This document shows positions 15,341 through 36,483 of a stretch of DNA of 64,000 nt, piece after piece. This stretch comes from a virus. Positions within the stretch are counted from its first letter, which is position 1. Each line of letters opens with the position of its first letter. The stretch covers positions 1-64,000 of IMG/VR virus record IMGVR_UViG_3300035156_000138; one strand, 5' to 3'. The notes below the pieces were generated by a model. That model saw only the letters and a list, made by a program, of their open reading frames with translations. It had not been told where the DNA came from and did not search any database. Made by a program: the position numbers and the translations under genes.

Positions 15341-15567
15341 TAGTAAATCGCCCCCAGATATTCACCTACAATGATCACGTTGTCCATCTGAACTTTGTTG
15401 ATGATCTCAGTGATACTGTTGCAGATCTCATCGTCATTCTGTTCACTGATGTACTGCAGGATTGAATCGTTGTCATTGCCGAGTTCATCAGCAATGGATG
15501 GTTTAACTAACACCGCCATGATGCAGTCCATGTCAGTGACCATTAATAAGTACTTTGGCTTTTTCAT
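15340..15567 (-). CDS. Hypothetical acidic protein
   Basis: 75 aa. Start overlaps the helicase stop. Confidence 0.5.
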   Translation of the reverse strand: MKKPKYLLMVTDMDCIMAVLVKPSIADELGNDNDSILQYISEQNDDEICNSITEIINKVQMDNVIIVGEYLGAIY

Positions 15568-16892: not shown

Positions 16893-16898
16893 GTGTTC

Positions 16899-17096
16899 TT
16901 ATTCCTTGGTTTGAGTGGTTTCTTTACCATGCAGGTAAATTAACCAGAGATCTATTTCATCTACATTAGGGGTTACTTTTTCACCCCATTCATTTAATGT
17001 TGCACGTTCAATAGCCGCATTGCAGTACACGCAATCTAATGAACCCCATAAAAGTTTAGTAAGGCTGCCTGTGTCATTGCAATGAGCGCATTTCAT
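16899..17096 (-). CDS. Small zinc-ribbon-like protein
   Basis: 65 aa with CxxC (CAHCND) and CxxC (CVYCN). AAGGAA SD. Confidence 0.55.
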   Translation of the reverse strand: MKCAHCNDTGSLTKLLWGSLDCVYCNAAIERATLNEWGEKVTPNVDEIDLWLIYLHGKETTQTKE

Positions 17097-17098
17097 GT

Positions 17099-18307
17099 CT
17101 ATTCCTTGTCGAACGTGTTGTAATGAACGACCTTACCGAATGGTGCTGTCCAACCTGGATTGTCATGGATCATCCACAGCACGTTGACACCTTTGACTTC
17201 GGCACGATCATGTCTGAAGCCACCATCACTGAAGACCATGGCTACCTTGGGTTTGGTCTTTTCGATGTGGTCCAGTACGTCAGTAATGTTGGTACCACCG
17301 CGGCCATGGAATTCCACATTGGCCAGGTCCATAACGTTCTTGACTGTCGTGATCGACTGGATGCAGGTATCGAACTGGCCAAGCTCAATTTTCTTGGGCA
17401 TCATCATCTTCAAGATGCCATGCAGCTCAGAGATGAAGCGAAGAAAGTCAGCATCGGTTTCTGATCCGGAGATATCAACCCAGGCTTGGAAGTCGACCAT
17501 GGCGCCTTCACTCCACAACGATGGTAGGTAATACTGTGGGAAGAAACGACGGTTGGGCTTTTTAAAGCTGTAGTCGTACTTGCCGAGTTCCTTTAGCCAT
17601 TTGCGAAGGATCTGCTGCCATGGTAATTTTGGATTGAGCAGCTTATCGAGATAGAGTTCAATCTCACCAGGGATGCTGCCAGGTGAGTCACCTTGCATGC
17701 GTGACTCAACTTGTGCACGGATGAGGATGTCATCCAACGCACGCTTGACATCAGCTTTAGACATCTGGTTACCATCAGCACCAGCTTCATCACCAGGATC
17801 ACGAATGTCTTCCATATCGCCAAGAGCTGGTGGTGGTAAACCTTGATCTTGTTCATCCATGAGAGTCTTGTAGACCTGTTCAGTAGCCAGGCCAATGAAG
17901 CGATCATCAGCTAAGCCGATCGGTGGCATGGTGAACCCTTGAGCTTTCAGCATCAAGTTGATGACATGATCGGCAGCCGCATTCCACATGCGATGGTCAC
18001 GCGTACCTTTGCGGAAAGGATCAATGTGCATATAGGCTGGATGGCAGCACTCATGTACAAGCACAAATACACGCTCCTCCGGAGTAAGCCAAAGAAAGAA
18101 ATGAGGAGAGAATCCCAAACGCAGACCAGTGGTCCATGCAGTCTGGCAGCTCTCATCCCACATGAATTTCATGCTGAACAGGATCGTTGTGAAGAACGTG
18201 CTGTTCGCGTTGACCATCAGCGCTACTTTCGCCTTGTCGAGTAGCTTGTTAAGTGCTGGATAATCGATCGGCGTTGAGCGGTTGATTGATTCATAAGGGG
18301 ATCGCAT
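17099..18307 (-). CDS. vWA-domain protein with N-terminal HExxH metallopeptidase-like domain (partner of the MoxR-like ATPase)
   Basis: 402 aa. VLVHECCHPAYMH (HExxH) in the N-terminal half. MIDAS-like VDISGSETD in the C-terminal half. Confidence 0.8.
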   Translation of the reverse strand: MRSPYESINRSTPIDYPALNKLLDKAKVALMVNANSTFFTTILFSMKFMWDESCQTAWTTGLRLGFSPHFFLWLTPEERVFVLVHECCHPAYMHIDPFRKGTRDHRMWNAAADHVINLMLKAQGFTMPPIGLADDRFIGLATEQVYKTLMDEQDQGLPPPALGDMEDIRDPGDEAGADGNQMSKADVKRALDDILIRAQVESRMQGDSPGSIPGEIELYLDKLLNPKLPWQQILRKWLKELGKYDYSFKKPNRRFFPQYYLPSLWSEGAMVDFQAWVDISGSETDADFLRFISELHGILKMMMPKKIELGQFDTCIQSITTVKNVMDLANVEFHGRGGTNITDVLDHIEKTKPKVAMVFSDGGFRHDRAEVKGVNVLWMIHDNPGWTAPFGKVVHYNTFDKE

Positions 18308-18363
18308 AATTTCCTCTGGGTTAGTGGATGTAAATTCAGGGTCACCGAGCGCGGTGACGCGCC

Positions 18364-18666
18364 TTAATACCCTGGAAGATGTTGACCTGGAAGCATGGCT
18401 TCAACGAGGGGAACGCGCAGGTCCATATCATCGTCAAAATCACGGTCATTCTCAGCAAGATATTCAGCCAAACGCTCAGCACGAGCTGCGTGATAGTCAG
18501 CTGTGAGCTTGTGTGTCTTCATTCGGAGATCGGCATATTCTGCCATGGAAATACACTGCAAGTGAGCCAGTTCTGCATCTTTCAATTCAGCCTTGGCCAT
18601 CTGAATTGGTGTGGCTTGAAAGCGCTGCAGAAATCGCTGAAACCAGGAAAGGGATTGTCCGTACAT
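18364..18666 (-). CDS. Hypothetical protein
   Basis: 100 aa with TGGAG SD. Confidence 0.55.
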   Translation of the reverse strand: MYGQSLSWFQRFLQRFQATPIQMAKAELKDAELAHLQCISMAEYADLRMKTHKLTADYHAARAERLAEYLAENDRDFDDDMDLRVPLVEAMLPGQHLPGY

Positions 18667-18683
18667 TGTGATACTCCATAAAT

Positions 18684-18705
18684 GGAAAAGGCCGCATCAG
18701 CGGCC
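18684..18705 (-). terminator. Rho-independent terminator (- strand) closing the HNH cassette
   Basis: On the - strand: GGCCGC TGAT GCGGCC followed by TTTTCCATTT. Stems at 18690-18695 / 18700-18705. Confidence 0.7.
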
Positions 18706-18726
18706 AGTTTGGGGGTTAGTGGGCGC

Positions 18727-19011
18727 TTACTTATTCTTTGGATGCAAACTGTCCTGGAACATGTTGTGCAAATCCAAAGCCTTCTTTGTGGGATTAAGTT
18801 GGGTGGCTTCACGCATTGCGACTTGGTGCTCGTGCCAGCTCATGCCCAGGATCTGTTCGATCTTGTTGAGTGCACGATTCATGGCTACACCGCCGTGCTT
18901 ACGTGCGTCGAGGTCCAGATAGTAGCTGGTGATAACGGCTTTGATGCCTACCAGGATGCGTGCGTTTTCATCAGGTGATTTGCGACGCTCGGGGATGTTG
19001 TCAGTGCTCAT
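18727..19011 (-). CDS. Hypothetical protein
   Basis: 94 aa. Start overlaps the HNH gene stop. Confidence 0.55.
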   Translation of the reverse strand: MSTDNIPERRKSPDENARILVGIKAVITSYYLDLDARKHGGVAMNRALNKIEQILGMSWHEHQVAMREATQLNPTKKALDLHNMFQDSLHPKNK

Positions 19012-19385
19012 GCTGTAATTTCCTCAAGAGTGAATGGATGGAGGTCACGACCAAATAATTTAGCCTTACCTCGCAGTGTATTTTCGCTATGCGTTACTGG
19101 CTCAAGATGAGCCGGATTGATGCAGCAACGTGTGCGGCAAAGGTGATCAAGAAGATGGTCTTCCGGAATAGGGCCAATACAGGCTTCATAACACAGCCGA
19201 TGGGCCATCTTCTCGCTGCCCTCGTAATGCATACGGCCGTAGCCGTTGCGATTGGTACGAGCAACCCACACCCAGCACTCTCCCAACGGTGCAATTACGA
19301 GAACAGGGGTGATACGATCGAGCAGCTTTTCGATGACCCCTTCTACGTGCTTAACGCCGAGAGAGAGTGGATGAGTGTGGTTCAT
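19008..19385 (-). CDS. HNH homing endonuclease
   Basis: 125 aa. CWVW..RTNRNGYGRM...AHRL...H.CRTRCCINP.HLE..TH.EN is the HNH (NGYG/HNH_3-type) signature. Confidence 0.85.
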   Translation of the reverse strand: MNHTHPLSLGVKHVEGVIEKLLDRITPVLVIAPLGECWVWVARTNRNGYGRMHYEGSEKMAHRLCYEACIGPIPEDHLLDHLCRTRCCINPAHLEPVTHSENTLRGKAKLFGRDLHPFTLEEITA

Positions 19386-19392
19386 GGTGATC

Positions 19393-19758
19393 CTATTTGT
19401 TGATGATGATTGTGACGTGGATGATCTTGGAGATCATGTAGCCAATGCCGGCAATCTTATGATGATAGTCGGTGCCCATCATATAGCGCATATGAGCCAT
19501 GGTGACCCGAGCTAATGATGTGCCGTCGTTGACGAAGCCAGGAAGGAAATCAATCTGCGCATGCTCCGGCTTATCACCGACGTACATGGCTTCAACGATC
19601 CTGGTGTACACGTTACCCTTCAAGAAAGCCTTGGGAATTTCGTCCAACGGAGGAAGTAAACGATCTGTTCCACGGATGAATTCTTCATTGGTAATCGAAG
19701 CGATATCCTCCTGTGTGATCGACCAGGGCTTCTTTTCTTTTGGTTTTTTCTTGGACAT
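19393..19758 (-). CDS. Hypothetical protein
   Basis: 121 aa. Start overlaps the AAA gene stop (TAATG). Confidence 0.55.
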   Translation of the reverse strand: MSKKKPKEKKPWSITQEDIASITNEEFIRGTDRLLPPLDEIPKAFLKGNVYTRIVEAMYVGDKPEHAQIDFLPGFVNDGTSLARVTMAHMRYMMGTDYHHKIAGIGYMISKIIHVTIIINK

Positions 19759-20870
19759 TAGAAAAGCTCCTCAGCGTGCATGGCTAGCCACTTCTGCATG
19801 TCTGCGTCGTTGACCATGGAGTTGTTACGGGCCAGTGTCATCCGTACACATACAACCTGGAATTCCAGAGGCATACGCTTAATGAACTGGAGCAGGCCAC
19901 CGATGTTAATGGCCGTAGCATGGTGAGCAATGCTCCCACACATGGCAAATAAGATAGAAGGCTCACCAGGTACACGAATAGCACCCGGAGCCATGAGTAT
20001 GTCGTGGATCGATGGTAGCTTGTCGAAGATGTCGCAGAACGTCAGGAATGGCCGTGCCACACCTTCGGTAATACAGCCGGCCAGTAACGACAGGGTATCT
20101 TCATCTTTCACGTCATACTTGCTGATGATGCGATTGGCGAATTCCCAGGTACGTGGCGAGCTATAGGTACGATCGCTGTGGTCTGGCTTGAACGAGTACA
20201 GTGCCGATGGTTGTGATTCCAGATAGCTCTGGATGCGATAGTCGATGCCTGCAGGACCAGCCCACTTGATCCATTCAGGTAGATCAACCATGAGTTCAAG
20301 GTGCATGATCCGGGACTGCAGTGCAGTACTCATCTGTTCAACGATGGCACCATCAGTTTCCAGGTTACCTGCACAGACCACAGCCACTTTTTCATGGAGA
20401 TGGTATTTACCGACCATGCGATCAAGAACGATCTTATACGCTGCAGCTTGTACTGCAACACTGGCTGAGTTGAACTCATCCAGGAACAGCAGCCAACCAG
20501 CATAGCGTTCAGGGCGCCCATCAGTGCCCAGAATCTCTTTGCCTTCTTTATCCAGCTTAACCGGATAGGAATCACCAGCAATGGGGAATGTCTCCATTGG
20601 TGTGTAGCCAGCACGGTTGATCGCAGCAATGATCTGTGGAAAGCCCAGCAAGTCAGTTGGATCGCACTGTGACAAGCGCAAGTCGATCAGCATCAGGTTG
20701 TAGTCCTTTGCGATCTGGTGCACGATGCCTGATTTACCAATGGCTGGTGAGCCATGGATCATAGGTACCAATTTACATGAAATAGCTTTGGTTACCATGC
20801 GTACAGCTTGACTGATTTTTACGCGCAAGCGTGGGTTTGCTCCAACATCGGGAGCGTAGTTCTTAGCCAT
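19758..20870 (-). CDS. AAA+ ATPase, MoxR-like
   Basis: 370 aa. Walker A GSPAIGKSG, Walker B WLLFLDEFNSA. A vWA partner gene is nearby. Confidence 0.85.
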   Translation of the reverse strand: MAKNYAPDVGANPRLRVKISQAVRMVTKAISCKLVPMIHGSPAIGKSGIVHQIAKDYNLMLIDLRLSQCDPTDLLGFPQIIAAINRAGYTPMETFPIAGDSYPVKLDKEGKEILGTDGRPERYAGWLLFLDEFNSASVAVQAAAYKIVLDRMVGKYHLHEKVAVVCAGNLETDGAIVEQMSTALQSRIMHLELMVDLPEWIKWAGPAGIDYRIQSYLESQPSALYSFKPDHSDRTYSSPRTWEFANRIISKYDVKDEDTLSLLAGCITEGVARPFLTFCDIFDKLPSIHDILMAPGAIRVPGEPSILFAMCGSIAHHATAINIGGLLQFIKRMPLEFQVVCVRMTLARNNSMVNDADMQKWLAMHAEELF

Positions 20871-20894
20871 GGGGAATTCTTTCTTGGATTGGTT

Positions 20895-21098
20895 TTAATT
20901 GCCACCAGCAGTGATGCTGATGTACTCTTCGCCAGGTTCAAGGTCGAATGGACCTTCATCACTGACTTCGTTGGATACGTGAGCCGATGAAAGCAAGCCA
21001 CAATCACCACTGGCGCTATGACGATAGAACACTTGCTTCTCGTGGTGGCCTTGAGCAACGAGCATGTTCAATTGTTTGATAAAGTCTTTCAGTTTCAT
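20895..21098 (-). CDS. Hypothetical protein
   Basis: 67 aa. SD context AAACCAAGGAAGAAATCATG. Confidence 0.55.
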   Translation of the reverse strand: MKLKDFIKQLNMLVAQGHHEKQVFYRHSASGDCGLLSSAHVSNEVSDEGPFDLEPGEEYISITAGGN

Positions 21099-21113
21099 GA
21101 TTTCTTCCTTGGT

Positions 21114-21329
21114 TTAGCAGTTAAGTAGATAGTGTTTATTACCAGGGTAGTCGGGGCAATCACAGCCGTTTGCCAACCCACACCGGAACGCCTTATCTTC
21201 AGACAATGCCCATTTTAAATTTGCACCAGCAGGATTTTCTTTGTTCATACGTTGAACTGCTTTATCCACTGGTAAAGACGTGCAGATGCTGGCACAAACC
21301 AATCCAATGGAGTAGGCTTCAAATTTCAT
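21114..21329 (-). CDS. Hypothetical Cys-rich protein
   Basis: 71 aa with 7 Cys, including CGLANGCDC. Confidence 0.5.
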   Translation of the reverse strand: MKFEAYSIGLVCASICTSLPVDKAVQRMNKENPAGANLKWALSEDKAFRCGLANGCDCPDYPGNKHYLLNC

Positions 21330-21495
21330 AGCTTTTCTTTCTGGATGTAGGTAAGACCAGGTTCAGCATTGCTTGTTGCTTCTTCTGTGTTTTAATAAGC
21401 CGCTTGAGTCGACTATTACGGGTTAATTTGACATCACGACGCATTAAATGCTGAATCGCGCTATTTACTTCATTGGGTAGTGTTGGAATACCCAT
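21319..21495 (-). CDS. Possible small basic protein (58 aa), not in the ORF track
   Basis: MGIPTLPNEVNSAIQHLMRRDVKLTRNSRLKRLIKTQKKQQAMLNLVLPTSRKKSYEI. It fills an otherwise empty 170-nt gap, but no SD was seen. Confidence 0.35.
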   Translation of the reverse strand: MGIPTLPNEVNSAIQHLMRRDVKLTRNSRLKRLIKTQKKQQAMLNLVLPTSRKKSYEI

Positions 21496-21500
21496 GATGC

Positions 21501-21647
21501 TTATTGAGCTTCATCCATCAGCTCAAGAAGAGCTTCATTGACACATTGATCGTATGTAGTCATTACGTCATTCTTACCCCAACCAGTTTTTGTGGCCAGC
21601 TTTGCCAAGAACTTGGCGCGGATCAGTGCAATCAGTTTTGTGTTCAT
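21501..21647 (-). CDS. Small protein (48 aa), not in the ORF track
   Basis: AAACCAAGGAAAAAATCATG context. Sequence MNTKLIALIRAKFLAKLATKTGWGKNDVMTTYDQCVNEALLELMDEAQ. Confidence 0.55.
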   Translation of the reverse strand: MNTKLIALIRAKFLAKLATKTGWGKNDVMTTYDQCVNEALLELMDEAQ

Positions 21648-21662
21648 GATTTTTTCCTTGGT

Positions 21663-21998
21663 TTAGCTTTTGCAGGAGTCGACCTGATAAAGCAGACTAT
21701 TGTGGTAGGTCATCAACAAAGCGTTGACGGCATTTGGTGTAGTGATAGGTAACTGGCTGACAGCCAGGTCCACTACAGACTGAAGGCTTTGCATGGTAGG
21801 AAAGAGTCCCATAACCGTGCTACGAAGTATCGGCTGTGCTTCTGGAGTTGTTGGTGCTACACATTCACCACTGATCAGAGCACGGATCATGTTCAGCTCT
21901 GAAAGCTTCACAGGTGTGTAATCACCCGAATTCATACTGGTGATCAAACTATCAAGCATGATCAATGCTACTGAGATTTGTTTTACGTTGATGTTCAT
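21663..21998 (-). CDS. Hypothetical protein
   Basis: 111 aa. Confidence 0.55.
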   Translation of the reverse strand: MNINVKQISVALIMLDSLITSMNSGDYTPVKLSELNMIRALISGECVAPTTPEAQPILRSTVMGLFPTMQSLQSVVDLAVSQLPITTPNAVNALLMTYHNSLLYQVDSCKS

Positions 21999-22029
21999 GT
22001 TAGTTGGTTCTTTACTAGGATTGAATAGG

Positions 22030-22257
22030 TTAGTGGATTACTTCAAGTGATCTGATCATCATCAGTGAGGTGTATTTGTACCTGTTCAAGATACGCATGA
22101 CCTTAGTAACACCTGCTTCTTCAAGCACTCGGCCGATCGTGCGAGGACTCACACACAGGAATCTAGCGAGCTCTTTGATAGACTTAGGACGATAGATCGA
22201 TGTATAAATGGTAACAACTGCCCGTTTTTGGGCGTCGTTTAGCTTACGGACGGGCAT
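22030..22257 (-). CDS. Small helix-turn-helix DNA-binding protein
   Basis: 75 aa. SIKELARFLCVSPRTIGRVLEE is an HTH pattern. AAGGAA SD. Confidence 0.65.
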   Translation of the reverse strand: MPVRKLNDAQKRAVVTIYTSIYRPKSIKELARFLCVSPRTIGRVLEEAGVTKVMRILNRYKYTSLMMIRSLEVIH

Positions 22258-22337
22258 GATGGTTCCTTGTTAGTTTACCGGTTGTATATAGTAGGAAAAT
22301 CGAATTTCCGACCACTTAGATTATCGGTTTAGAAGTT

Positions 22338-22640
22338 TTACTTGTTTCGGTTCACACTTCTCATACGACCCTTAAAAGACTGTCTTGGGGCTGCATAGTT
22401 CTTTTTTGATAATGGTTTGGGATGCCATGGATCACCTGGAGGTGCATCCACAAAACAAATTGGATCAGGTACACACAAAGCTAACGAAGCGGCAATCTGT
22501 TCAATGTGACTTTGTTTACCATAGCGACCCAAGAAGAAAAGATCTTTTTCCGCTCTTCGCCGAATAACTTGACCGTCCAACATCAAGATCAGCTCTTCCA
22601 CCTGGGGTTCCAGGGACTTCCATAATTCTTCAGGTGTCAT
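22338..22640 (-). CDS. Hypothetical protein
   Basis: 100 aa. First gene after the terminator at 22670-22704. Confidence 0.55.
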   Translation of the reverse strand: MTPEELWKSLEPQVEELILMLDGQVIRRRAEKDLFFLGRYGKQSHIEQIAASLALCVPDPICFVDAPPGDPWHPKPLSKKNYAAPRQSFKGRMRSVNRNK

Positions 22641-22669
22641 GACTGTCTTACTCCAATGGGGTTTTGCAT

Positions 22670-22704
22670 AAAAAAAGAGGTGAACCCCGTATGGGATCCA
22701 CCTC
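22670..22704 (-). terminator. Strong rho-independent terminator (- strand); candidate early/middle boundary
   Basis: On the - strand: GAGGTG..CCC ATACG GGG..CACCTC followed by TTTTTTT (A-run 22670-22676 on +). Confidence 0.8.
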
Positions 22705-22756
22705 AGCTAGCTCACAGACCGCACGGAGTGCGGCTCTTCCTACTGCAACCACTGCT

Positions 22757-23095
22757 TCACTGTGGCTCAGGCTGGTCATTGCGATCGAACTTCTTGATCA
22801 CTTCATTGATGTCACTGATCCAACGTGGTGGCCAGAAGCACTCATTTATCTCTGAGCTATTCATGACCATGTGAGTACCAGCATCAGTGAGCACTCTGTA
22901 GTACGGACGGCCGTAGTCCAGCGTACCAGCCTTGAGCCCGATGATATGGGCATTGCCCATACGGCGGCCATCCCTTGTGCAGAGCTGAGCACCTACATCC
23001 AGGATGCCAGGCTGTGCTGCTCGTACAGCCCAATGAGGGAGGATTTGCTCCCATTCTTTGACAAGTTTCACCATGTCATTTACTTCGTTTACCAT
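22757..23095 (-). CDS. Hypothetical protein
   Basis: 112 aa with AAGGGG SD. Confidence 0.6.
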   Translation of the reverse strand: MVNEVNDMVKLVKEWEQILPHWAVRAAQPGILDVGAQLCTRDGRRMGNAHIIGLKAGTLDYGRPYYRVLTDAGTHMVMNSSEINECFWPPRWISDINEVIKKFDRNDQPEPQ

Positions 23096-23117
23096 GTATT
23101 ACCCCTTACTTTTATAA

Positions 23118-24386
23118 TTAAGACAACGCGTAATTGCTGCCGCGGATCTTGGAACCCAGATCATTTGACAACTTCTTGAAGGTGCACGGCGTACCGTGGA
23201 TTTGAGACAGCAGGTCCGACAACAGATTACTTTCAGCCAGTTCGGCAAAGATGTTGATGTAGTGCTGACGCAGATGGTTCATGTGGTTTGCACCACATTT
23301 GAATTCATCGTGAACAGTTACAACTGGGAACGGCGAATGTACCAGCATGGTGAGGATAATGTCACGCAACTTTTCCAAATGAATCGTAGACAGTTGATTA
23401 ACATTTGCTGCTGTGATAAATGGCAGAATGACCACATCAGCCATACCACTACGGGTGAATTGCTCGACGTAGTAAGCCAATTTGGTACCCGTATCGAGTG
23501 GTTGCGTTGGCTTAACACCATTGCGAGCACCATCATGTAATGCACTGGCGATGCAGTCTAATGCACGCTCGACCATGCCATGATCGTAGTTGCACCGACG
23601 ATGCACACCACGCAGGATGTAGGCATCCACGCTGTGTACTACGTTAGCTACCAGTGACAGGCCATTCTTGCTGCCTTCGTTGACGTAGAACTCATAGGTA
23701 AACGTACTGTGATCGAGTTCATCTACCTCAATGCGTGCTTCCTCTTTCTTCATGACCTTGACTACAGCATCGAAGCCATCTGGGAGTTTCCAGCTATGCT
23801 TCAGTGCGAATGGCTGCCATGATGCGAGCAGATCCTGCAATAGCTCCCATGCACCCGGTGCTACACGTTGTGCTGCTACGTAGAAGGCATTGAGCTCGGG
23901 TGTATCTTCACCAAATATCTCCTTTGGCTTGGCTTTAGAGCCATAGAACGAGGTCATCAGAGCATCTTTAGCATCCTTACGGGATACAACCAGACCACCA
24001 CTGAGAGTGACAGAACCAGTTAGTTCTTCGTTCATGAAGACAGTACACAGAGTGTATGCATCAGCACGTACATTAGGATTGATGAAGCCAGTGTTCATGG
24101 CACCATCAACACATCCAGTGAGTGCTGACATTACTTGAATACCTGAACAGCAGGCATCCATACCAACCAGATGGCCAGTAGGCTCATGACGCAGTGCTTT
24201 ACGCACAGCCATGACAGCTTTGATATACAACGGCTTACAGTCAGCGTTATCAGCCAACAGTTCCAACTGATTCATGTTGGATTCAACCCATGAGATACGT
24301 TCTTCAAACAGCAGCTTATCAAGGCCAAAGTTATTGGCTACATCGATAAGAAGATACTGCCAACCGGTGAATTTGGTCATTGCCAT
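23118..24386 (-). CDS. Phage RNA polymerase II, large subunit (T7-like catalytic half; N4 gp16-like)
   Basis: 422 aa. Motif A GMDACCSGIQVMSA, motif B SRKDAKDALMTSFYGS, motif C VVTVHDEFKCG. Confidence 0.9.
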   Translation of the reverse strand: MAMTKFTGWQYLLIDVANNFGLDKLLFEERISWVESNMNQLELLADNADCKPLYIKAVMAVRKALRHEPTGHLVGMDACCSGIQVMSALTGCVDGAMNTGFINPNVRADAYTLCTVFMNEELTGSVTLSGGLVVSRKDAKDALMTSFYGSKAKPKEIFGEDTPELNAFYVAAQRVAPGAWELLQDLLASWQPFALKHSWKLPDGFDAVVKVMKKEEARIEVDELDHSTFTYEFYVNEGSKNGLSLVANVVHSVDAYILRGVHRRCNYDHGMVERALDCIASALHDGARNGVKPTQPLDTGTKLAYYVEQFTRSGMADVVILPFITAANVNQLSTIHLEKLRDIILTMLVHSPFPVVTVHDEFKCGANHMNHLRQHYINIFAELAESNLLSDLLSQIHGTPCTFKKLSNDLGSKIRGSNYALS

Positions 24387-24401
24387 GATAGTTTCCTTTA
24401 G

Positions 24402-24635
24402 TTATAGGTTAAGTACGAGTTGAAGCATGCGGAGTCGCTTTGGTACATCCACCAGTAGTACTGGAGTCATATCGCAGCGATACCAATCTACTTTGGGATT
24501 ATTACCTCTTGCTAGGACATAACCACCGTTATATACATCAGATTGAACTTGAGTATGTGGATATAAATCTTTATGTAGCTCTTTCCAAGTAGAGTACCGG
24601 CTATATTCCTGATTGCCATAGAATAGAATTAGCAT
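24402..24635 (-). CDS. Hypothetical protein between the two RNAP II subunit genes
   Basis: 77 aa with GAGGG SD. Overlaps the upstream gene by 7 nt. Confidence 0.5.
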   Translation of the reverse strand: MLILFYGNQEYSRYSTWKELHKDLYPHTQVQSDVYNGGYVLARGNNPKVDWYRCDMTPVLLVDVPKRLRMLQLVLNL

Positions 24636-25609
24636 GGCACACCCTCGATATACTCAGGATTAGCAAGCTCAATACTAGCTTTCTTGAATGCTGATCCCTG
24701 TGGATTTATGTGATAGCCTTGGCTGTATGCCCGGCCACGTTTGTCGACCTTATGGGTCATGTGGAACACATTACCTTGTGAAGCCATGAGATCATAGAAG
24801 CGATATGAATGTATCTTGAATTGCTTCCAGTTATTCAACTGAGTAACAATCTCAATCTTAGCCTGCCCTTCAGTCATACGAACACCACGTTTAGCTGCGG
24901 CTTTGATGACATTTTCCATTGTAATAGGCTCATTTGGTTCTTCCTCAACTGAGCATAGAAACTCAGTATCCAATGATAGTTCAACTGCATTCATTGTATT
25001 GAGTACATCCAAGCAGAGATCACCATCGTGATGATTACCTGAACCTAGAATGAGTGAATCATTATGAGTCAGATAACCTGAACAGAAGTTAGATGTTAAC
25101 TCTAGTGGTGGCACTACCATTGGTGGGAGAAACTGGGACTCATCAATGAATGTCACCAGCTTCTCAGACAGTGGAATACGACTCACAATATGCAGTGATG
25201 CCATCTTTGCTGGCTTGAGAATGTCGAATGCATCAGTATTACACAGCACAGCCATGAGCTCAGCAGTGGTGATGATAGCCTCAGTCTTATCCGAGAACCG
25301 AAGACGTGCAGCCATCTGTGCTGTAACACTGGTAAACAACTCAGGACGCTGGCTATATGCCACACCAACAAAGATATCAGTGACCAGTGCTTCGATGTCC
25401 ATGTTATATAGCTGCATAACACGAACATTCTTGGATTTGTAATACCGATCATTACGTGCTGCGAAGATGTATTGATCCACTAATAAGATGCCCTCTGCAA
25501 TCTTCTCCTGCATAACAGGATCAGATTGAATGGCTTCACGGATGTAGCCATCAATATGTTTGCGATTAAATCGCTTCTCGTTATGCTCTTGAATGATGAA
25601 ATGCGACAT
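24629..25609 (-). CDS. Phage RNA polymerase II, small subunit (T7-like N-terminal half; N4 gp15-like)
   Basis: 326 aa. HKVDKRGRAYSQGYHINPQGSAFKK matches the T/DxxGR motif region of T7-like RNAPs. AAGGAG SD. Confidence 0.85.
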   Translation of the reverse strand: MSHFIIQEHNEKRFNRKHIDGYIREAIQSDPVMQEKIAEGILLVDQYIFAARNDRYYKSKNVRVMQLYNMDIEALVTDIFVGVAYSQRPELFTSVTAQMAARLRFSDKTEAIITTAELMAVLCNTDAFDILKPAKMASLHIVSRIPLSEKLVTFIDESQFLPPMVVPPLELTSNFCSGYLTHNDSLILGSGNHHDGDLCLDVLNTMNAVELSLDTEFLCSVEEEPNEPITMENVIKAAAKRGVRMTEGQAKIEIVTQLNNWKQFKIHSYRFYDLMASQGNVFHMTHKVDKRGRAYSQGYHINPQGSAFKKASIELANPEYIEGVPC

Positions 25610-25634
25610 GACTATCTCCTTGGTTATTATTTAT

Positions 25635-26000
25635 TTAGCCCCAGCATTGATGATTGGGTAGATACTCAGCCCATGCTTCATCAAAATAACAGTTACTAGG
25701 TGCATCAGTAAACATTGGTGCAATCTGTTCATCGGTATAGCCCGCTAAGCCGCAACCAATACGAGTAACCATGAATTGAAGGTGAGGATGCGTGGTTGCA
25801 TACAGAATGAATTGATGGATATAACTTTCAATGTGGGTCAGTTCTAATGAACGGATGTTGAAATCCTTGGTAGGAATAGCATAGCTATTACCGTGATGAC
25901 CACGACCTTCACGCCATACTGCGCCTTCCTTATCCAATGCGTGTTTAGCTGCACCGGCACCATGAATACCTGCTAAGTTACTACCGAATACGAATATCAT
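25635..26000 (-). CDS. Conserved-looking early protein of unknown function (Rossmann-like motifs)
   Basis: The start was moved to 26000 (GAAGGAG SD) from the ORF-track start at 26360. Sequence MIFVFGSNLAGIHGAGAAKHA...NSYAIPTKD...RIGCGLAGY. Confidence 0.65.
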   Translation of the reverse strand: MIFVFGSNLAGIHGAGAAKHALDKEGAVWREGRGHHGNSYAIPTKDFNIRSLELTHIESYIHQFILYATTHPHLQFMVTRIGCGLAGYTDEQIAPMFTDAPSNCYFDEAWAEYLPNHQCWG

Positions 26001-26030
26001 GACTAACTCCTTCAATGAATAATAGGGAAC

Positions 26031-26051
26031 ATCACAGCATGTCCGGAGGAC
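26031..26051 (-). promoter_or_regulatory. Candidate vRNAP hairpin promoter (copy C)
   Basis: + strand (template) ATCACAGCA TGTCC GGA GGACA: 5-bp stem, GGA loop. It lies 41 nt upstream of the ATG at 26000 and shares its flank with copies A and B. Confidence 0.6.
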
Positions 26052-26077
26052 AGCATGTAACTCCACTGTCTGTGTGT

Positions 26078-26127
26078 AAAAAAGAGCAGCCACCACCACC
26101 CAATTAAGGGAGGTAGTAGCTGCTCTT
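26078..26127 (-). terminator. Rho-independent early terminator (- strand)
   Basis: On the - strand: AGAGCAGC...GCTGCTCT followed by TTTTTT (A-run 26078-26083 on +). It lies directly after the stop at 26143 and just upstream of hairpin C. Confidence 0.75.
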
Positions 26128-26142
26128 GTACCGCACTTGGTA

Positions 26143-26424
26143 TTACGCTTCAGGCAGATCGAAGGCGGTATCTTCAGCCGGTGTCGAAGCGTTGTATTCA
26201 ACTTGCAACATGCCGAGGAACAGCGCAGCACGACCAGCAGGATCAGCAGCGAACCATTCAGCAAGAGCACGCTCATTAGCGTACATCTCGCGGCAAGGGA
26301 TTGCACCAACCTTACGGCGGCCACCACCAACGTTAGGCAGGAAGAAATTGATGAAGCCAACAGCCTTCTTGTTAGCAGGAATGCCGGAGGTTGCGGTATT
26401 GGTATTGTCTTTAGCGAATGCCAT
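26143..26424 (-). CDS. Early hypothetical protein
   Basis: The start was moved to 26424 (AAGGA SD). The ORF-track extension to 26478 would run into hairpin B. 93 aa, MAFAKDNTNTATSG... Confidence 0.6.
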   Translation of the reverse strand: MAFAKDNTNTATSGIPANKKAVGFINFFLPNVGGGRRKVGAIPCREMYANERALAEWFAADPAGRAALFLGMLQVEYNASTPAEDTAFDLPEA

Positions 26425-26467
26425 GATAGATAGTCCTTGATATGAGTTGATATGAATTGGAGCGAAT

Positions 26468-26489
26468 CTCCACCACATGGCCGGAGGCC
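26468..26489 (-). promoter_or_regulatory. Candidate vRNAP hairpin promoter (copy B)
   Basis: + strand CTCCACCACA TGGCC GGA GGCCA: 5-bp stem, GGA loop. It lies 55 nt upstream of the ATG at 26424. Confidence 0.6.
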
Positions 26490-26511
26490 ACGTAGCGTAG
26501 ATGGGACTTAA

Positions 26512-26820
26512 TTAATGAAGCACAGTGCCCGGTGGAGCACCATGAATATCAGTGACATTCATTCCATACATATGGAAAACCTCAGAGAGAATACGGCACA
26601 AGCTATCGATAGTAATACCATCGAGAGTATCAGGGTTATACATAACCACAGCTTCATCAATAAGCAATGAAATACCATCAACCTCGTAAAACTCAACGAA
26701 GATGAGGGCATCAGCATATGGATGATGCGGAGTTAGTAACCGAAGTGCTTCGAGCATCATGCTGTGCATCTTTACATTCAGCACAGGTGAGTTAGAGAAG
26801 TCAGGCTTGTTCATGATCAA
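26512..26820 (-). CDS. Early hypothetical protein
   Basis: 102 aa. Confidence 0.55.
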   Translation of the reverse strand: MIMNKPDFSNSPVLNVKMHSMMLEALRLLTPHHPYADALIFVEFYEVDGISLLIDEAVVMYNPDTLDGITIDSLCRILSEVFHMYGMNVTDIHGAPPGTVLH

Positions 26821-27080
26821 CGTACCAATGCTTGCATGACAGATGTGAATGCTTTAGCTGCTTGATTAGCATGTGCTTGTGCCACCAATGCTTGATCTTC
26901 ATCAGGACCAACAGCCACATTAGCGTAGTCATCACCCATGAATGACATCTCATGCAGGTCTTCTGGATCACAATAGGTACCATCCGGCCATACACAGATA
27001 TATTCAAAGTGTTGCGATACAGCGGTAGCAGATACAACAGGATTCAATACATCAGTAGTGATGGTATGCAGATACGACAT
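26817..27080 (-). CDS. Early hypothetical protein
   Basis: The start was moved to 27080 (TAGGAG SD 7 nt upstream), removing the overlap with 27091..27306. Confidence 0.55.
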   Translation of the reverse strand: MSYLHTITTDVLNPVVSATAVSQHFEYICVWPDGTYCDPEDLHEMSFMGDDYANVAVGPDEDQALVAQAHANQAAKAFTSVMQALVR

Positions 27081-27090
27081 GGTGATACTC

Positions 27091-27306
27091 CTATAGTTTG
27101 AGCCAAGTTTGATAGTCGGCTTCAGTGTAGTGGGTTGAATACTTATGATCATGTGAGCACTTCAGCCCCATTAACTGGGACTTATGTGCATCACACGCTT
27201 GTTTGTTAAGGCCAGTTAGATGCCATACGGCCTGTACCTTGTGACCAGCAGCCTTACACCATGGACAATTGGTGATGTGACCTGGCTTGATAGGTCGAAT
27301 CTTCAT
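27091..27306 (-). CDS. Early Cys/His-rich small protein
   Basis: 71 aa. CPWCK...C..H...C.H.H pattern. Confidence 0.55.
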   Translation of the reverse strand: MKIRPIKPGHITNCPWCKAAGHKVQAVWHLTGLNKQACDAHKSQLMGLKCSHDHKYSTHYTEADYQTWLKL

Positions 27307-27527
27307 ACCTTAACAGTCTTACCTATGGCCATTGCCGCTTCACGAGCAGCAGCCATAGCATTGATACGAGCAAGCTGCCACTGAGGTACTGGCAAGCTTA
27401 CTTTAGGTGGATAAGCGCGTGCTACTGGTTGATGGACAGCCAAGGCTTGGGCCTTAGCCAATTCAGCTTCAAGGCGTTGCACTTCAGCGAAGAGCTGAGC
27501 CTTGGTATTACGCATACTCATGGACAT
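27303..27527 (-). CDS. Early hypothetical protein
   Basis: The start was moved to 27527 (AGGAG SD). MSMSMRNTKAQLFAEVQRLEAELAKAQ is coiled-coil-like. Confidence 0.55.
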   Translation of the reverse strand: MSMSMRNTKAQLFAEVQRLEAELAKAQALAVHQPVARAYPPKVSLPVPQWQLARINAMAAAREAAMAIGKTVKV

Positions 27528-27540
27528 GATGATTCTCCTA

Positions 27541-27633
27541 TTACAGTTTGATGGGTGCATTGCAGCGAGTGCAACGACGATATTTAGAGCCCCAATGTAC
27601 GAACGAACAACGAGGACAGATGTATGAACGCAT
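27541..27633 (-). CDS. 30-aa zinc-ribbon micro-protein, first ORF of the early leader (not in the ORF track)
   Basis: AGGAG SD 8 nt upstream of the ATG at 27633. Sequence MRSYICPRCSFVHWGSKYRRCTRCNAPIKL (CxxC...CxxC). Confidence 0.6.
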   Translation of the reverse strand: MRSYICPRCSFVHWGSKYRRCTRCNAPIKL

Positions 27634-27984
27634 GATAGATCTCCTAATATAGATGATTAGACAACTATGACCTATTACATTGCATGGGTGAAGATGTATG
27701 TGAACAGGAATGAGGCAAAGAACACAAGCATGAGCTTAGATGTGGTGTGAGTAGACATAGTATATCGGTGACCTATCGGAATGGTGAAAGGGATGGAAAT
27801 GGGGATGAATGAATGGGTGAATGAGATAGCACAGGTACAACGCAGTGCCATTAGGCACCTGACCCTCACTATCCATCAGACCTGCGACGTAAGTGAGTAC
27901 TCACATACATTGATGATGAACGAGCATGGATGAACAGTGTTCAGTATGAATTCATGAAAAGCCAATGAGGATTACATCATCGGT

Positions 27985-28005
27985 ATCACCACATGACCGG
28001 AGGTC
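27985..28005 (-). promoter_or_regulatory. Candidate vRNAP hairpin promoter (copy A, outermost)
   Basis: + strand ATCACCACAT GACC GGA GGTC: 4 bp plus G.U, GGA loop. It is followed leftward by a ~350-nt ORF-poor leader. Confidence 0.55.
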
Positions 28006-28118
28006 GGGACTCTCTCCCGCCGAGCGCATGTCGACGTAGGAAGTTGAGGGACATGCTGCGCTAGTACTGTCTATACGCTGTAGTGTGTGGTGTTGATTGT
28101 GTAGTGTGTAAAGAACTA

Positions 28119-28140
28119 AGCTCACCCCGAAGGATGAGCT
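28119..28140 (-). terminator. Hairpin terminator after the 74-aa gene
   Basis: AGCTCA..CC CGAA GG..TGAGCT, 7 nt after the stop at 28147. On the - strand it is followed by TAGTTCTTT, a weak U-tract. Confidence 0.45.
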
Positions 28141-28146
28141 ATGTCA

Positions 28147-28371
28147 TTACTCTGCTACTGGTACAGGCACAGGTGCTGGCAATGAAGTCAATGCTGCTTC
28201 AGCTTCTTGAGCCTTGAGTAACTGCTTGCGCTTGTGACGTGACTCGTCGACAAACACACCCGATGACTCATCAGCCCAGGTAGCCAGGTTGTTGAGCGAT
28301 GATGCAGTCTTCTCTGCTGCACTGAACAGTTTGGTAAGGAAGAGGAAGAATGCGGTGAATGCGTGACCCAT
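28147..28371 (-). CDS. Hypothetical small protein with hydrophobic N-terminus
   Basis: The start was moved to 28371 (AGGAG SD). MGHAFTAFFLFLTKLFSAAEK... Confidence 0.55.
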   Translation of the reverse strand: MGHAFTAFFLFLTKLFSAAEKTASSLNNLATWADESSGVFVDESRHKRKQLLKAQEAEAALTSLPAPVPVPVAE

Positions 28372-28481
28372 GGTAGTACTCCTAAAGGATGAAGATGAAT
28401 GATTGCTGATCCACGTTAGATCAACCACAGCATGCGCGGAGCGCCGTTACCGAAGACGAATAGGATCCCTATTTGCGTTTT

Positions 28482-34834: not shown

Positions 34835-35179
34835 ATGAGCAATCAAGACGAGATCAATAGCATCGAGCGCGATGTAAAAGACGCTAAAGAGCAGAAAGCT
34901 CTGGGCACCGCACTCGAACGACTGATCACCAACCGTGACTTTCAGAAGGTCATCAAAGCAGGGTATTTTGAAGCCGAAGCTGTGCGCCTGGTGCACGCTA
35001 AAGGTGACCCAGCTTGTCAGACTCCTGAAAAGCAGGCGTCGATCATCCGTCAAATAGATTCGATCTCAAACCTGAATCAATATTTCCAGACCGTACTGCA
35101 TATGGCAGGTCTGGCAGAAAAATCAGTTCAAGAAAGTGAAGCTATCCTTGAAGAACTACGTGCTGAGGGTGGTGAATAA
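34835..35179 (+). CDS. Hypothetical head-module protein
   Basis: 114 aa. Confidence 0.6.
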   Translation: MSNQDEINSIERDVKDAKEQKALGTALERLITNRDFQKVIKAGYFEAEAVRLVHAKGDPACQTPEKQASIIRQIDSISNLNQYFQTVLHMAGLAEKSVQESEAILEELRAEGGE

Positions 35180-36483
35180 TGGCCCTCGACAAAGATCAGA
35201 TTGATGACGACCTGGACACCAGCAACGACGACAACCAGGAAGTGAACAGCTTCCTTGACATGTCCGATGAGGACATGGCCAAGCTGAACACCCCTTCACT
35301 GGCTTCGGCACCAGCAGCGAATACCACAGCTGATGTTGATGGCGAAGTGAAAGAAACTGACGAAGAGAAAGCTGCCACGGCAGCAGCTGCCGCAGCTCTC
35401 GAATCGGATGATGTCGACGACAAGGGTGCTGGCGATGAAAACGGTGGGAAAAGCGAAGCCGACAAGACGGCTGATGTGGCAGGCAGTATTGCAGATGCGA
35501 AGAGTACGGCAAACGCGGATCCTGCAGGCAAAGACAGCAAAACTGCCGATGCAAAAACCGATGCCAAGAACGAAGAAGTAAAAGATGAAGGCGATGGTAA
35601 AGCGAAGTCCGGCGTCGAAGACGCCAAGGACGAAAGCGGAGCCATCGACTATAAGGCAGCATATGAACGGTTGACTGCACCATTCAAAGCCAATGGCCGT
35701 GACATTACGGTAAAGAGCGTTGATGATGCCATTCAGCTGATGCAAATGGGTGCTAACTACAACAAGAAGATGGCTGGCCTGAAGCCAAGCCTGAAACTGG
35801 TGAAGATGCTTGAAGGTGCTGGCTTGATGGATGAAGCCCAGCTTAACTTCCTGATCGACGTGCACAAGCGCGATCCAGGCGCTATTAACAAATTAATCGT
35901 TGACAGTAAGATGGATCCTTTGGATCTGTCCGCTGCCAAGGCCAGTGAGTACAAGCCTGGTAACCACTCAGTTGATGACCAATCAATGGAACTGGACGAA
36001 GTACTGGCCGACTTGAAGGAAAGCCCGCACTACGCACGGACATTGGATGTGGTTGCCAATAAGTGGGACAAGCCGTCCAAGAGTGAAGTAGCTGGGAATC
36101 CGCAGGTGATTCGACTGATCAACGACCACATTAGTGCCGGGATCTTCGATATCGTAACTACGGAAATCGAAAGCGAGCGTACCTTTGGCCGACTGAAGGG
36201 TCTGTCCGACCTCCAAGCCTATCAGAAAGTGGGTGACGCGATCAACGCGCGTGGCGGGTTTAACCATCTCAACTCGGGTAGCTCCCAGTCGAAGAAGGAA
36301 ACTACCGCTCCGGCGCAAGTAGTCGTAGCACCAAAACCTAAGCAGGTGGAAGACGACAAGCTGAAAGACAAGCGGCGCCAAGCAAGTGGCACCAAGGCTG
36401 CTGCTCCAACGGGAAACAAGGTTCCGGCCGACTTCAACCCATTGGCCATGTCTGATGAAGACATGAAGCAATTTAAGTTCTAA
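35179..36483 (+). CDS. Putative scaffolding/head-assembly protein (acidic, low complexity)
   Basis: 434 aa with a D/E/K/A-rich N-terminal half, immediately upstream of the major capsid gene. Confidence 0.6.
   Translation: MALDKDQIDDDLDTSNDDNQEVNSFLDMSDEDMAKLNTPSLASAPAANTTADVDGEVKETDEEKAATAAAAAALESDDVDDKGAGDENGGKSEADKTADVAGSIADAKSTANADPAGKDSKTADAKTDAKNEEVKDEGDGKAKSGVEDAKDESGAIDYKAAYERLTAPFKANGRDITVKSVDDAIQLMQMGANYNKKMAGLKPSLKLVKMLEGAGLMDEAQLNFLIDVHKRDPGAINKLIVDSKMDPLDLSAAKASEYKPGNHSVDDQSMELDEVLADLKESPHYARTLDVVANKWDKPSKSEVAGNPQVIRLINDHISAGIFDIVTTEIESERTFGRLKGLSDLQAYQKVGDAINARGGFNHLNSGSSQSKKETTAPAQVVVAPKPKQVEDDKLKDKRRQASGTKAAAPTGNKVPADFNPLAMSDEDMKQFKF

Follow-up and report, generated by a model that had tools for sequence, protein, structure and literature searches.

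Four putative hairpin promoters for a virion RNA polymerase in the early region of an uncultured N4-like phage

The window analysed here was a stretch of 64,000 nucleotides of an uncultured virus (positions 1 to 64,000 of the IMG/VR record IMGVR_UViG_3300035156_000138). Its early region consists of leftward ORFs on the - strand between positions 28371 and 22757 and adjoins the point from which the late genes diverge, an arrangement to be expected when N4-type genome ends are joined. The first early ORF (74 aa, 28371..28147, - strand) is followed by a terminator-like hairpin (28119..28140, -). Further along the region there are a 27-aa ORF with a weak Shine-Dalgarno sequence, starting at 27758, and five small ORFs (27633..26512, -), with a clear Shine-Dalgarno sequence in front of the 30-aa ORF 27633..27541. 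The subsequent ORF (93 aa, 26143..26424, -) was assigned by a profile match only to phrog_6271, the family containing gp14 Drc of Pseudomonas phage LUZ7, which is a single-stranded-DNA-binding cofactor of RNAPII. No BLASTP similarity of this Drc-like ORF to LUZ7 Drc and no match among solved structures were detected. An intrinsic terminator (26078..26125, -), composed of a GAGCAGC/GCTGCTC stem and a T-run, is located directly after the Drc-like ORF. It precedes the genes encoding a phrog_2072 protein (26000..25635, -), the RNAPII small subunit similar to N4 RNAP1 (24629..25609, -; phrog_2166, 3.5e-96) and the RNAPII large subunit similar to N4 RNAP2 (23118..24386, -; phrog_2051, 5.7e-153). The last ORF of the run (22757..23095, -) is followed by a strong intrinsic terminator with a 12-bp stem and a run of seven T (22670..22704, -), which ends the early region.

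The gaps between these genes contain short inverted repeats. An earlier note on this DNA had described three GGA hairpins on the + strand; all three were found in the sequence as quoted, with end positions given one base short for two of them (sites A and B). The class comprises four hairpins in total, as the outermost site D had been missed, and a further hairpin, E, represents a different class. Putative promoter D (28425..28444, +) possesses the hairpin GCGC-GGA-GCGC (28434-28444, loop centre 28439) and a flank on the template strand starting with CCA (28425-28427), followed by a spacer. Putative promoter C (27986..28006, +) comprises the hairpin GACC-GGA-GGTC (27995-28005, loop centre 28000), preceded by TCA (27986-27988) and a spacer. 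In putative promoter B (26470..26490, +), CCA (26470-26472) and a spacer precede the hairpin TGGCC-GGA-GGCCA (26478-26490, loop centre 26484), and in putative promoter A (26032..26052, +), located directly beside the terminator that follows the Drc-like ORF, TCA (26032-26034) and a spacer precede TGTCC-GGA-GGACA (26040-26052, loop centre 26046). The stems of A and B are 5 bp long, D has 4 bp and C has four Watson-Crick pairs with an additional T.G pair at 27994/28006.

The C-GGA-G triloop core and the one-sided flank 5'-YCA-NNN-CAT were common to all four sites. The flank pattern CACMRCATGNCCGGAGGNC was matched exactly at sites A, B and C, and allowing two mismatches in it revealed the fourth site, D, with the sequence CACAGCAT-GCGC-GGA-GCGC at 28426-28444. 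In each site, both candidate start distances from the loop centre, 11 nt and 13 nt, fall on a template C. Position -8 was occupied by C at A, B and C and by G at D. The lack of G at -8 in three of the four sites and the presence of only four Watson-Crick pairs in two of the stems count against the promoter reading.

All of A-D are located on the + strand, opposite the - strand ORFs 28371..22757, and the proposal that the + strand serves as the template for the downstream genes was borne out for every site. The hairpins had also been said to lie upstream of genes with good Shine-Dalgarno sequences, which is correct for the sites centred at 26046 and 26484, located 33-47 nt from the ORFs, and holds less well for site C. 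The nearest ORF downstream of C with a clear Shine-Dalgarno sequence is the 30-aa one, about 350 nt away, and the 27-aa ORF with the weak one starts at a distance of about 230 nt.

The flank pattern was found four times in the window, with 0.03 occurrences expected, and none of 100 shuffled sequences gave four. A structure-only scan of the window, in which a hairpin was defined as C-GGA-G with at least four Watson-Crick pairs, returned five hits on the + strand, every one of them in the interval 22.7-28.4 kb, and a single hit on the - strand. Of the six GGA hairpins in the 128 kb that the two strands make up, five belong to the early region of 5.9 kb and lie on its template strand. In Markov simulations of 22601-28500, such hairpins averaged 0.046 and never exceeded two, compared with the five observed in 5.9 kb.

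The folding z-scores did not discriminate the window sites. Their DNA folding z-scores ranged from -2.2 to +0.4 and those of the N4 promoters from -1.5 to -2.6, and the two ranges overlapped. In the nearest-neighbour folding, which does not model GNA-triloop stability, the hairpin was disfavoured at C and D folded no better than shuffled sequences. Because the proven N4 promoters score much alike, the folding test was considered uninformative rather than negative. The weak folding at C and D, together with the distance of about 230-350 nt from C without a convincing gene, speaks against the promoter reading.

A megablast search with the region 25500-28600 against 50,697 phage records gave no match, and no isolate in the phage collection matched the early region at the DNA level. 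Relatives were therefore gathered via the terminase protein, which shares no more than about 70% identity with that of any isolate in the collection. In 80 IMG/VR relatives, oriented like the window, 186 such hairpins were present on the + strand and 45 on the - strand. Among 29 relatives with at least 6 kb of flanking sequence, 19 carried three to six hairpins within 6 kb upstream of the terminase gene, whereas the other strand of the same interval carried none to two. In the consensus across the relatives, CCA occupies the positions 14-12 nt and CAT those 8-6 nt from the loop centre, with the conserved C at 13-14 nt, inside the CCA. When sites were picked by flank and loop only, four Watson-Crick pairs were present in 53 of 250 on the + strand and in 1 of 201 on the - strand.

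The stems showed covariation, as pair types were mixed at each position across the relatives, with the loop and the flank kept constant. One relative (L002) retained all four hairpins, with an identical D hairpin. In another (L003), the stems differed yet still paired at syntenic positions, the D orthologue having a GGGC/GCCC stem. The comparison of related genomes proposed in the earlier note thus showed a motif that recurs in a strand-specific manner in the relatives. Position -8 was variable in the relatives as well as in LUZ7. The data point to the C-G-R-A-G triloop core, the downstream CCA and the location on the template strand as family-wide constants of hairpin promoters used by virion RNA polymerases (vRNAPs), and to position -8, stem length and spacer length as variables. 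Such a division is useful for the annotation of N4-like genomes and the design of single-stranded-DNA transcription templates.

The presence of a vRNAP gene in the window, also claimed earlier, was confirmed: the + strand ORF 44242..54534 encodes a 3430-aa protein, the central domain of which, at about aa 895-2010, matches the N4 mini-vRNAP structures at 5e-20. This protein is the proposed reader of A-D. In an alignment of seven sequences with 20% identity, the catalytic residues D559, R666, K670 and D951 were invariant. In the same alignment, the column of W129, one of the residues contacting the promoter in N4, contained Y or F, and K114, R119, D901 and R904 were not conserved. The specificity-loop region carries an insertion, being longer than in N4 and not alignable with D901/R904. 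The pairwise alignment began only after residue 148 of mini-vRNAP, and the regions of -11 recognition and of the specificity loop were too divergent in the multiple alignment. Since the contact residues are not conserved and the specificity loop contains an insertion, recognition of the hairpins could not be argued from the enzyme.

The strand, the triloop, the gene context, the vRNAP gene and the conservation all support the suggestion, made earlier from the letters alone, that the hairpins are early promoters of a virion RNA polymerase. Sites A-D are very probably early promoters of an uncultured N4-like phage (Schitoviridae), read by the injected 3430-aa vRNAP. The motif, its strand and position, the counts, the conservation with covariation and the vRNAP gene are direct observations on these genomes; extrusion, dependence on single-stranded-DNA-binding protein (SSB), exact start sites and timing are suggested by analogy with N4 and LUZ7. 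After entry of the DNA, negative supercoiling would extrude each short inverted repeat as a cruciform, in which the template-strand arm would form a compact G-G-A triloop closed by a C:G pair. As in N4, the 5'G and 3'A of the loop would form a sheared pair, and the template hairpin would resist the host SSB, while SSB melts the other arm. The vRNAP would then bind the template hairpin via the loop and the closing pair and start on the single-stranded template at the conserved C, at a fixed distance downstream. The hairpin mechanism as such is already well known; it is met here in an uncultured relative, and its understanding is unchanged.

The LUZ7 distance of 13 nt between loop centre and start is more likely to apply here than the 11 nt of N4. 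It is predicted because the flank register matches that of LUZ7, whose mapped starts lie 13-14 nt from the hairpin centre. The transcripts would begin with G and run toward lower coordinates, with starts predicted at 28426 (D), 27987 (C), 26471 (B) and 26033 (A); with the N4 ruler of 11 nt the corresponding positions would be 28428, 27989, 26473 and 26035. The conserved flank had been placed on the transcribed side of the hairpins, which did not hold, as it would mostly constitute a spacer between the hairpin and the start.

Four transcription units may be envisaged. Unit D would comprise the 74-aa ORF 28371..28147, and unit C would begin with a leader of about 230-350 nt followed by the five small ORFs 27633..26512. 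Unit B would contain the single Drc-family-like ORF 26424..26143, and unit A would encode the phrog_2072 protein and both RNAPII subunits. Units B and A would be bounded by intrinsic terminators, with the early region ending at the terminator 22704-22670. Site D and the first early ORF are predicted to fall within the terminal repeat, which in N4 contains P1 and in LUZ7 the site at 86. For an uncultured schitovirus this amounts to a transcription map with four putative early promoters and their predicted starts, three terminators and an early/middle boundary.

The alternative that survives best, albeit as an unlikely one, is that some or all of A-D are promoters for RNAPII acting with the Drc-like cofactor and not for vRNAP. 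The LUZ7 middle promoters, of which four have been mapped, are also GC-rich hairpins on the template strand, with a stem of at least 6 bp and a loop of 3-4 nt, located about 15 nt upstream of a G start (PMC9163698), and the window encodes both RNAPII and a Drc-family ORF. However, A and B lie upstream of the very RNAPII and Drc-like genes that are needed before RNAPII exists. Moreover, A-D have stems of 4-5 bp accompanied by the flank register of LUZ7 early promoters, and the 6-bp class has its own member in hairpin E.

It is rather less probable that the hairpins function at the RNA level, by stabilising 5'-UTRs, serving as processing sites or terminating transcripts that come from further upstream. 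They are placed in intergenic gaps, where terminators occur, and the inverted repeats would fold in a - strand transcript too, if transcribed. However, no T-run follows any of hairpins A-E on either strand, the terminator scan having placed terminators at other coordinates, and separate canonical terminators stand beside hairpins that would have no U-run in RNA. The conserved loop is a purine G-R-A on the template strand, which RNA would read as UCC, and a UCC loop is not known to have special stability in RNA. The strand bias in the relatives (186 versus 45) and the conservation of the flank on one side only also argue against a function in RNA. In addition, the non-coding DNA that separates D from the divergent late genes upstream measures no more than about 120 bp, and few sigma-70-like sites are present. 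Such sites were scarce overall, with five found versus 14.4 expected. An Rfam scan of 20000-30000 at E<=1 gave no match to any family.

Still less credit can be given to the elements being double-stranded palindromic operators for a dimeric phage or host regulator. Such operators could appear as short inverted repeats in front of genes, but the stem sequences of A-D vary between sites and relatives with the pairing kept, and therefore structure is favoured over a half-site sequence. The conserved parts are instead an asymmetric loop and a one-sided flank, always on the same strand. A chance resemblance in GC-balanced intergenic sequence, to which the short stems of 4-5 bp and the weak folding z-scores would be suited, is hardly conceivable in view of four to five hairpins found versus 0.03-0.05 expected and the syntenic conservation of the sites in many relatives. 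The terminator, operator and chance readings of A-D were rejected on the absence of U-runs, the covariation and the counts relative to expectation.

Hairpin E (22712..22733, +) has the sequence CCGCAC-GGA-GTGCGG (22719-22733, loop centre 22726) with a GC-rich 6-bp stem, five of the six pairs being G:C. It is located between the stop of the ORF 22757..23095 and the early terminator, which follows 10-15 nt downstream. It would be unusual for a promoter to be followed by a strong terminator at a distance of 10-15 nt. In L002, hairpin E showed a compensatory change in the stem and a loop of 4 nt. A hairpin of this class separates the RNAPII operon from the early terminator not only in the window but also in LUZ7 and at least six relatives; N4 is without it. 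The LUZ7 hairpin, known here from the sequence and centred at 8245, occupies the same place, after the RNAPII large-subunit operon and before an intrinsic terminator. With its GC-rich 6-bp stem and 3-nt loop (4 nt in L002), E resembles the LUZ7 middle promoters. Searching the whole window for hairpins with a stem of 6 bp or more and a loop of 3-4 nt revealed no clear series of additional class-E sites in the middle region.

Hairpin E is a candidate for a LUZ7-type middle promoter, used by RNAPII and Drc, or for a part of the early termination module. A tentative joint reading, for which the chances are modest, is that E is an early-to-middle switch module and that the vRNAPs of this clade combine a 13-nt ruler with a stem specificity different from that of N4. 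Under such a scheme, RNAPII and a Drc-type cofactor would use E as a hairpin promoter, with the terminator that halts vRNAP located downstream of it, so that one element of about 60 nt could end early and launch middle transcription. The 13-nt ruler and the different stem specificity may be linked to the enlarged specificity loop.

Coliphage N4 shares with the window a giant vRNAP with the same catalytic motifs and hairpins that precede small early ORFs and RNAPII genes in the first few kb by the genome end. N4 has three promoters and four sites are present here. The N4 stems are 5-7 bp long, in comparison with 4-5 bp in A-D, and the N4 start C lies 11 nt from the loop. A conserved template C is present downstream in both, and C occurs at 11 nt in all four sites of the window. 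The -8G in the N4 stem is contacted by R904 and recognised, whereas C is present at this position in three of the four sites. The N4 spacer is an A-tract, replaced here by CAT-NNN and then the conserved CCA, which lies 14-12 nt from the loop versus 12-10 nt in N4, i.e., 2 nt further. A-D share with the N4 promoters a template-strand 3-nt G-R-A loop closed by C:G, and their C-GGA-G core is identical to that of P2 (GAAGC-GGA-GCTTC) and P3 (GCTGC-GGA-GCAGC), as read from EF056009. In N4, the loop must be 5'-G-(A/G)-A-3' with a central purine at -11, closed by -9C:-13G; extrusion requires its 5'G and 3'A as well as the closing G:C pair, and vRNAP recognises -11A/G, -10G, -8G and +1C (PMC4496689). 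A sheared G.A pair explains the stability of the N4 template-strand hairpin (PMC4496689). The same C-G-N-A-G core with a sheared G.A pair is found in GNA-triloop DNA mini-hairpins of the d(GCGAAGC) type, which are a structural motif and not a functional family.

The proteins of LUZ7 are very divergent from those of the window, with 48% identity for the RNAPII large subunit and a link at the profile level only for Drc. Nine early starts, two of them in tandem, are present in LUZ7 versus four single sites here, and the LUZ7 loops are mostly GTA or GAA, whereas all of A-D have GGA. The LUZ7 early promoters, mapped by ONT-cappable-seq, have stems of 4 bp or more and 3-nt loops (PMC9163698), and the same architecture, with the loop closed by C:G, is seen in A-D. 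A promoter precedes the Drc-family gene in LUZ7 and, putatively, in the window. The CCA-NNN-CA register, which immediately adjoins the 5' side of the stem on the template strand, is likewise shared, being present in LUZ7 at sites 86, 797, 3669 and 3701, which include the tandem pair upstream of Drc. The early starts of LUZ7 are G, mapped 13-14 nt downstream of the hairpin centre (PMC9163698), and this distance matches the invariant template C at 13 nt in A-D, where the starts are predicted.

The earlier note had claimed three hairpins with a GGA loop on the + strand as early promoters of the virion RNA polymerase (vRNAP), and all three were found: TGTCC-GGA-GGACA (26040-26052, site A, loop centre 26046), TGGCC-GGA-GGCCA (26478-26490, site B, 26484) and GACC-GGA-GGTC (27995-28005, site C, 28000), each with CAC(C/A)(A/G)CAT on its 5' side. 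The pattern proposed in that note matched exactly at A, B and C and, with two mismatches allowed, picked up site D (CACAGCAT-GCGC-GGA-GCGC, 28426-28444, +, loop centre 28439), against a chance expectation of 0.03 matches. The three claimed sites are real, but their count is four, as D, which belongs to the same class, had been missed. The stems of A, B, C and D comprise 5, 5, 4 (plus a T.G pair) and 4 bp, respectively. A structural scan for C-G(G/A)A-G closed by four or more Watson-Crick pairs placed all + strand hairpins with a GGA loop at 22726, 26046, 26484, 28000 and 28439, and a single one, at 18079, on the - strand; simulated sequences of the 5.9-kb region contained a mean of 0.046 such hairpins.

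The occurrence of the motif in related genomes, suggested previously as a check, was analysed in 80 IMG/VR loci around terminase homologues (72-94% identity), set in the orientation of the window. Across these loci, the + strand held 186 C-G(G/A)A-G hairpins and the - strand 45. Upstream flank of 6 kb or more was available for 29 loci; in 19 of them, the 6 kb upstream of the terminase gene contained 3-6 such hairpins, against 0-2 on the opposite strand, so the motif recurred in a strand-specific manner. The template consensus aligned on the loop centre consisted of CCA at 14-12 nt, three variable bases, CAT at 8-6 nt and the stem. In contig L002 (terminase 94% identical, 72-88% DNA identity) all four hairpins were unchanged, and in locus L003 they occupied the same syntenic positions with altered yet paired stems (GCCC/GGGC, GGAC/GTCC, AGCC/GGCT and GGGC/GCCC). 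When sites were re-collected by flank and loop alone, to avoid selection on pairing, four consecutive Watson-Crick pairs were present in 53 of 250 sites on the + strand and 1 of 201 on the - strand, and every stem position showed C:G, G:C, A:T and T:A. From this comparison, the A-D element is therefore a conserved strand-specific structure in which the loop and a one-sided flank are kept. This speaks against an operator recognized as duplex DNA, which would be expected to conserve the sequence of its half-sites, whereas here the paired stems vary and the loop and flank do not. An RNA element is argued against by the conserved purine loop on the template strand, which would read UCC in RNA, and by the lack of a U-run at any of A-D, separate terminators adjoining them; no Rfam match was found to the hairpin region (20000-30000).

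Nearest-neighbour DNA folding gave weak z-scores of -2.2 to +0.4 for the window sites and missed the hairpin of site C, but this test cannot discriminate, because proven N4 promoters scored -1.5 to -2.6 under identical conditions; the model omits the special stability of G-N-A triloops.

The genomic setting is that of an N4-like phage. The central domain of a 3430-aa ORF (44242..54534) showed a match to crystal structures of N4 mini-vRNAP (E 5e-20), and the ORF retains the catalytic D559, R666, K670 and D951. Genes on the - strand span 5446..28371 and late genes on the + strand run from 28568 as far as the vRNAP gene, which makes the 120-bp gap 28445-28567 a divergent junction, as would be expected if the two termini of a linear N4-type genome had been joined. 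The assembly probably joined the physical ends of the genome, or a terminal repeat, at this point. Sequence features of the gap, which lies between D and the late genes, are a G7 run (CCGGGGGGGTGG), an AT-rich stretch and repeats of TTTTAGG. Below 28439, the - strand encodes, in order, small ORFs, a 93-aa ORF of the Drc family (Drc being the ssDNA-binding cofactor of the second phage polymerase, RNAPII, in phage LUZ7), a phrog_2072 protein and both RNAPII subunits (24629..25609 and 23118..24386). As all early ORFs and RNAPII genes lie on the - strand, the + strand is their template, as the earlier note stated. Intrinsic terminators on the - strand were located at 28140-28119, 26125-26078 and 22704-22670, the last being the strongest of the region. 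Between 21500 and 29000, sigma-70-like matches were depleted (5 versus 14.4 +/- 4.6 in shuffles). Terminator-like sites were enriched in the same interval (13 versus 4.6).

The 93-aa ORF (26143-26424, -) is the only gene of the unit that is bounded by promoter B and a strong terminator. It matched the phrog_6271 profile (E 1.5e-6), the family that includes LUZ7 Drc (E 5e-37), and showed no pairwise BLASTP similarity to LUZ7 Drc. No homologue of N4 gp2 (phrog_4099) was detected among ten early ORFs scanned. The claim that the promoters precede genes with good Shine-Dalgarno sequences fails at site C, which has no such gene nearby. About 230-350 nt after promoter C (27640-27987, -) lack a convincing gene; the candidates are a hydrophobic 27-aa ORF starting at 27758 (-), whose Shine-Dalgarno sequence is weak, and a CxxC...CxxC ORF of 30 aa (27633..27541, -) with AGGAG. 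The stretch may serve as a long leader or encode an early non-coding RNA. The phage is absent from the isolate collection. Megablast of its early region against that collection gave no match, and no isolate terminase exceeds ~70% identity to the one in the window.

Hairpin E, CCGCAC-GGA-GTGCGG (22719-22733, +), represents a separate class with a 6-bp stem and a flank unlike that of A-D. It sits between the stop codon of the ORF 22757..23095 and the terminator 22704-22670, and in L002 its loop has 4 nt and its stem has changed in a compensatory manner (CCGCCC/GGGCGG). The module, namely the RNAPII large-subunit operon followed by a GC-rich 6-bp hairpin with a template GGA loop and, within ~25 nt, an intrinsic terminator, after which the next gene comes, was identified at 22670-22733 in the window, ~929 in L002, 3377 in L005, 2188 in L007, 2938 in L008, 2868 in L012, 546 in L080 and 8238-8300 in LUZ7, where the hairpin is centred at 8245 with the terminator directly after. 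N4 differs in having the terminator alone at this position. Other relatives have a hairpin of this type ~35-55 nt ahead of a start codon, and no terminator intervenes. Hairpin E agrees with LUZ7 middle promoters as published, which have a loop of 3-4 nt and a stem of 6 bp or longer (PMC9163698), and a middle-promoter role would also fit the Drc-family ORF in the window; a promoter just upstream of a terminator would, however, be odd. The module is possibly an RNAPII/Drc middle promoter or part of an early termination signal, and is the most interesting loose end of the analysis.

Two further GC-rich template-strand hairpins, GTGCCC-GGAG-GGGCAC (59774-59789, +) and AGCGTCG-GGA-CGACGCT (63038-63054, +), are located in gaps between - strand genes and may be additional sites of the hairpin E class. 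In L006, L007 and L080, the RNAPII large-subunit homologue appeared as two tblastn segments 0.8-1.3 kb apart, which suggests an inserted element, for instance an intron, an intein or a homing-endonuclease gene. The late gene 35179..36483 (phrog_2120, annotated tape measure) contains a perfect 6-bp hairpin, GGCGTC-GAA-GACGCC (35611-35625, +), which recurs at 13816 in L002 and 15975 in L003, the latter with a double change (GGCACC/GGTGCC); situated in a charged coding stretch, it may be coincidental.

The window vRNAP was aligned with five relatives and N4 mini-vRNAP, whose identity to it is just 20%. N4 W129, which stacks on -11G, corresponds to Y or F in the window clade, and K114, R119, D901 and R904 were not conserved at this identity. 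Relative to N4 mini-vRNAP, the specificity-loop region of the clade (46879-50271, +, ~aa 880-2010 of the window vRNAP being the part compared) contains an insertion of ~20-30 residues (ERKLSDKDTYQNVVKFGQPFADGSKSTQVHGY), which would be compatible with a changed -8 preference, although the local alignment is unreliable.

The template strands of N4 P1, P2 and P3, read from the N4 genome, are CATAAGTTGC-GAA-GCAAC, CATCCAAAAGAAGC-GGA-GCTTC and TTACCAAAAGCTGC-GGA-GCAGC, respectively. In N4, gyrase-driven supercoiling extrudes the hairpin, extrusion and stability require the loop 5'G and 3'A and a closing G:C pair, E. coli SSB melts the non-template arm leaving the template hairpin intact, and vRNAP recognizes -11A/G, -10G, -8G and +1C (PMC4496689). 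Sites A-D have exactly -13G, -12A, -11G, -10G and -9C, and a template C stands at the distance of +1 in N4. However, -8G is not kept (G at D, but C at A, B and C), the spacer is no A-tract, and CCA lies 2 nt farther from the loop than in N4, where its second C is +1. The primary 5' ends of the N4-like phage LUZ7 have been mapped, and the majority of its early promoters combine a 3-nt loop with a stem of 4 bp or more and a G start 13-14 nt downstream of the hairpin centre (PMC9163698). The LUZ7 template carries CCA-NNN-CA directly 5' of the stem at sites centred at 797 and 3701, and close variants of it at 86 and 3669 (3669 and 3701 forming a tandem pair upstream of Drc), in the same flank register as in the window clade. 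From this register and the N4 start at the second C of CCA, transcription from D, C, B and A is predicted to start, probably, at that C, 13 nt from the loop centre (28426, 27987, 26471 and 26033); by the N4 ruler, the starts would be 28428, 27989, 26473 and 26035, where a template C is also present. N4 P1 and the LUZ7 site at 86 are located within the terminal repeats of their own phages. The predicted role of A-D as vRNAP hairpin promoters is backed by all the sequence-level and comparative tests available, and it is of a known kind, since predicted hairpin promoters are already routine in N4-like phages such as LUZ7 and LIT1 (PMC3715699); the GenBank record of CB1 likewise annotates three.
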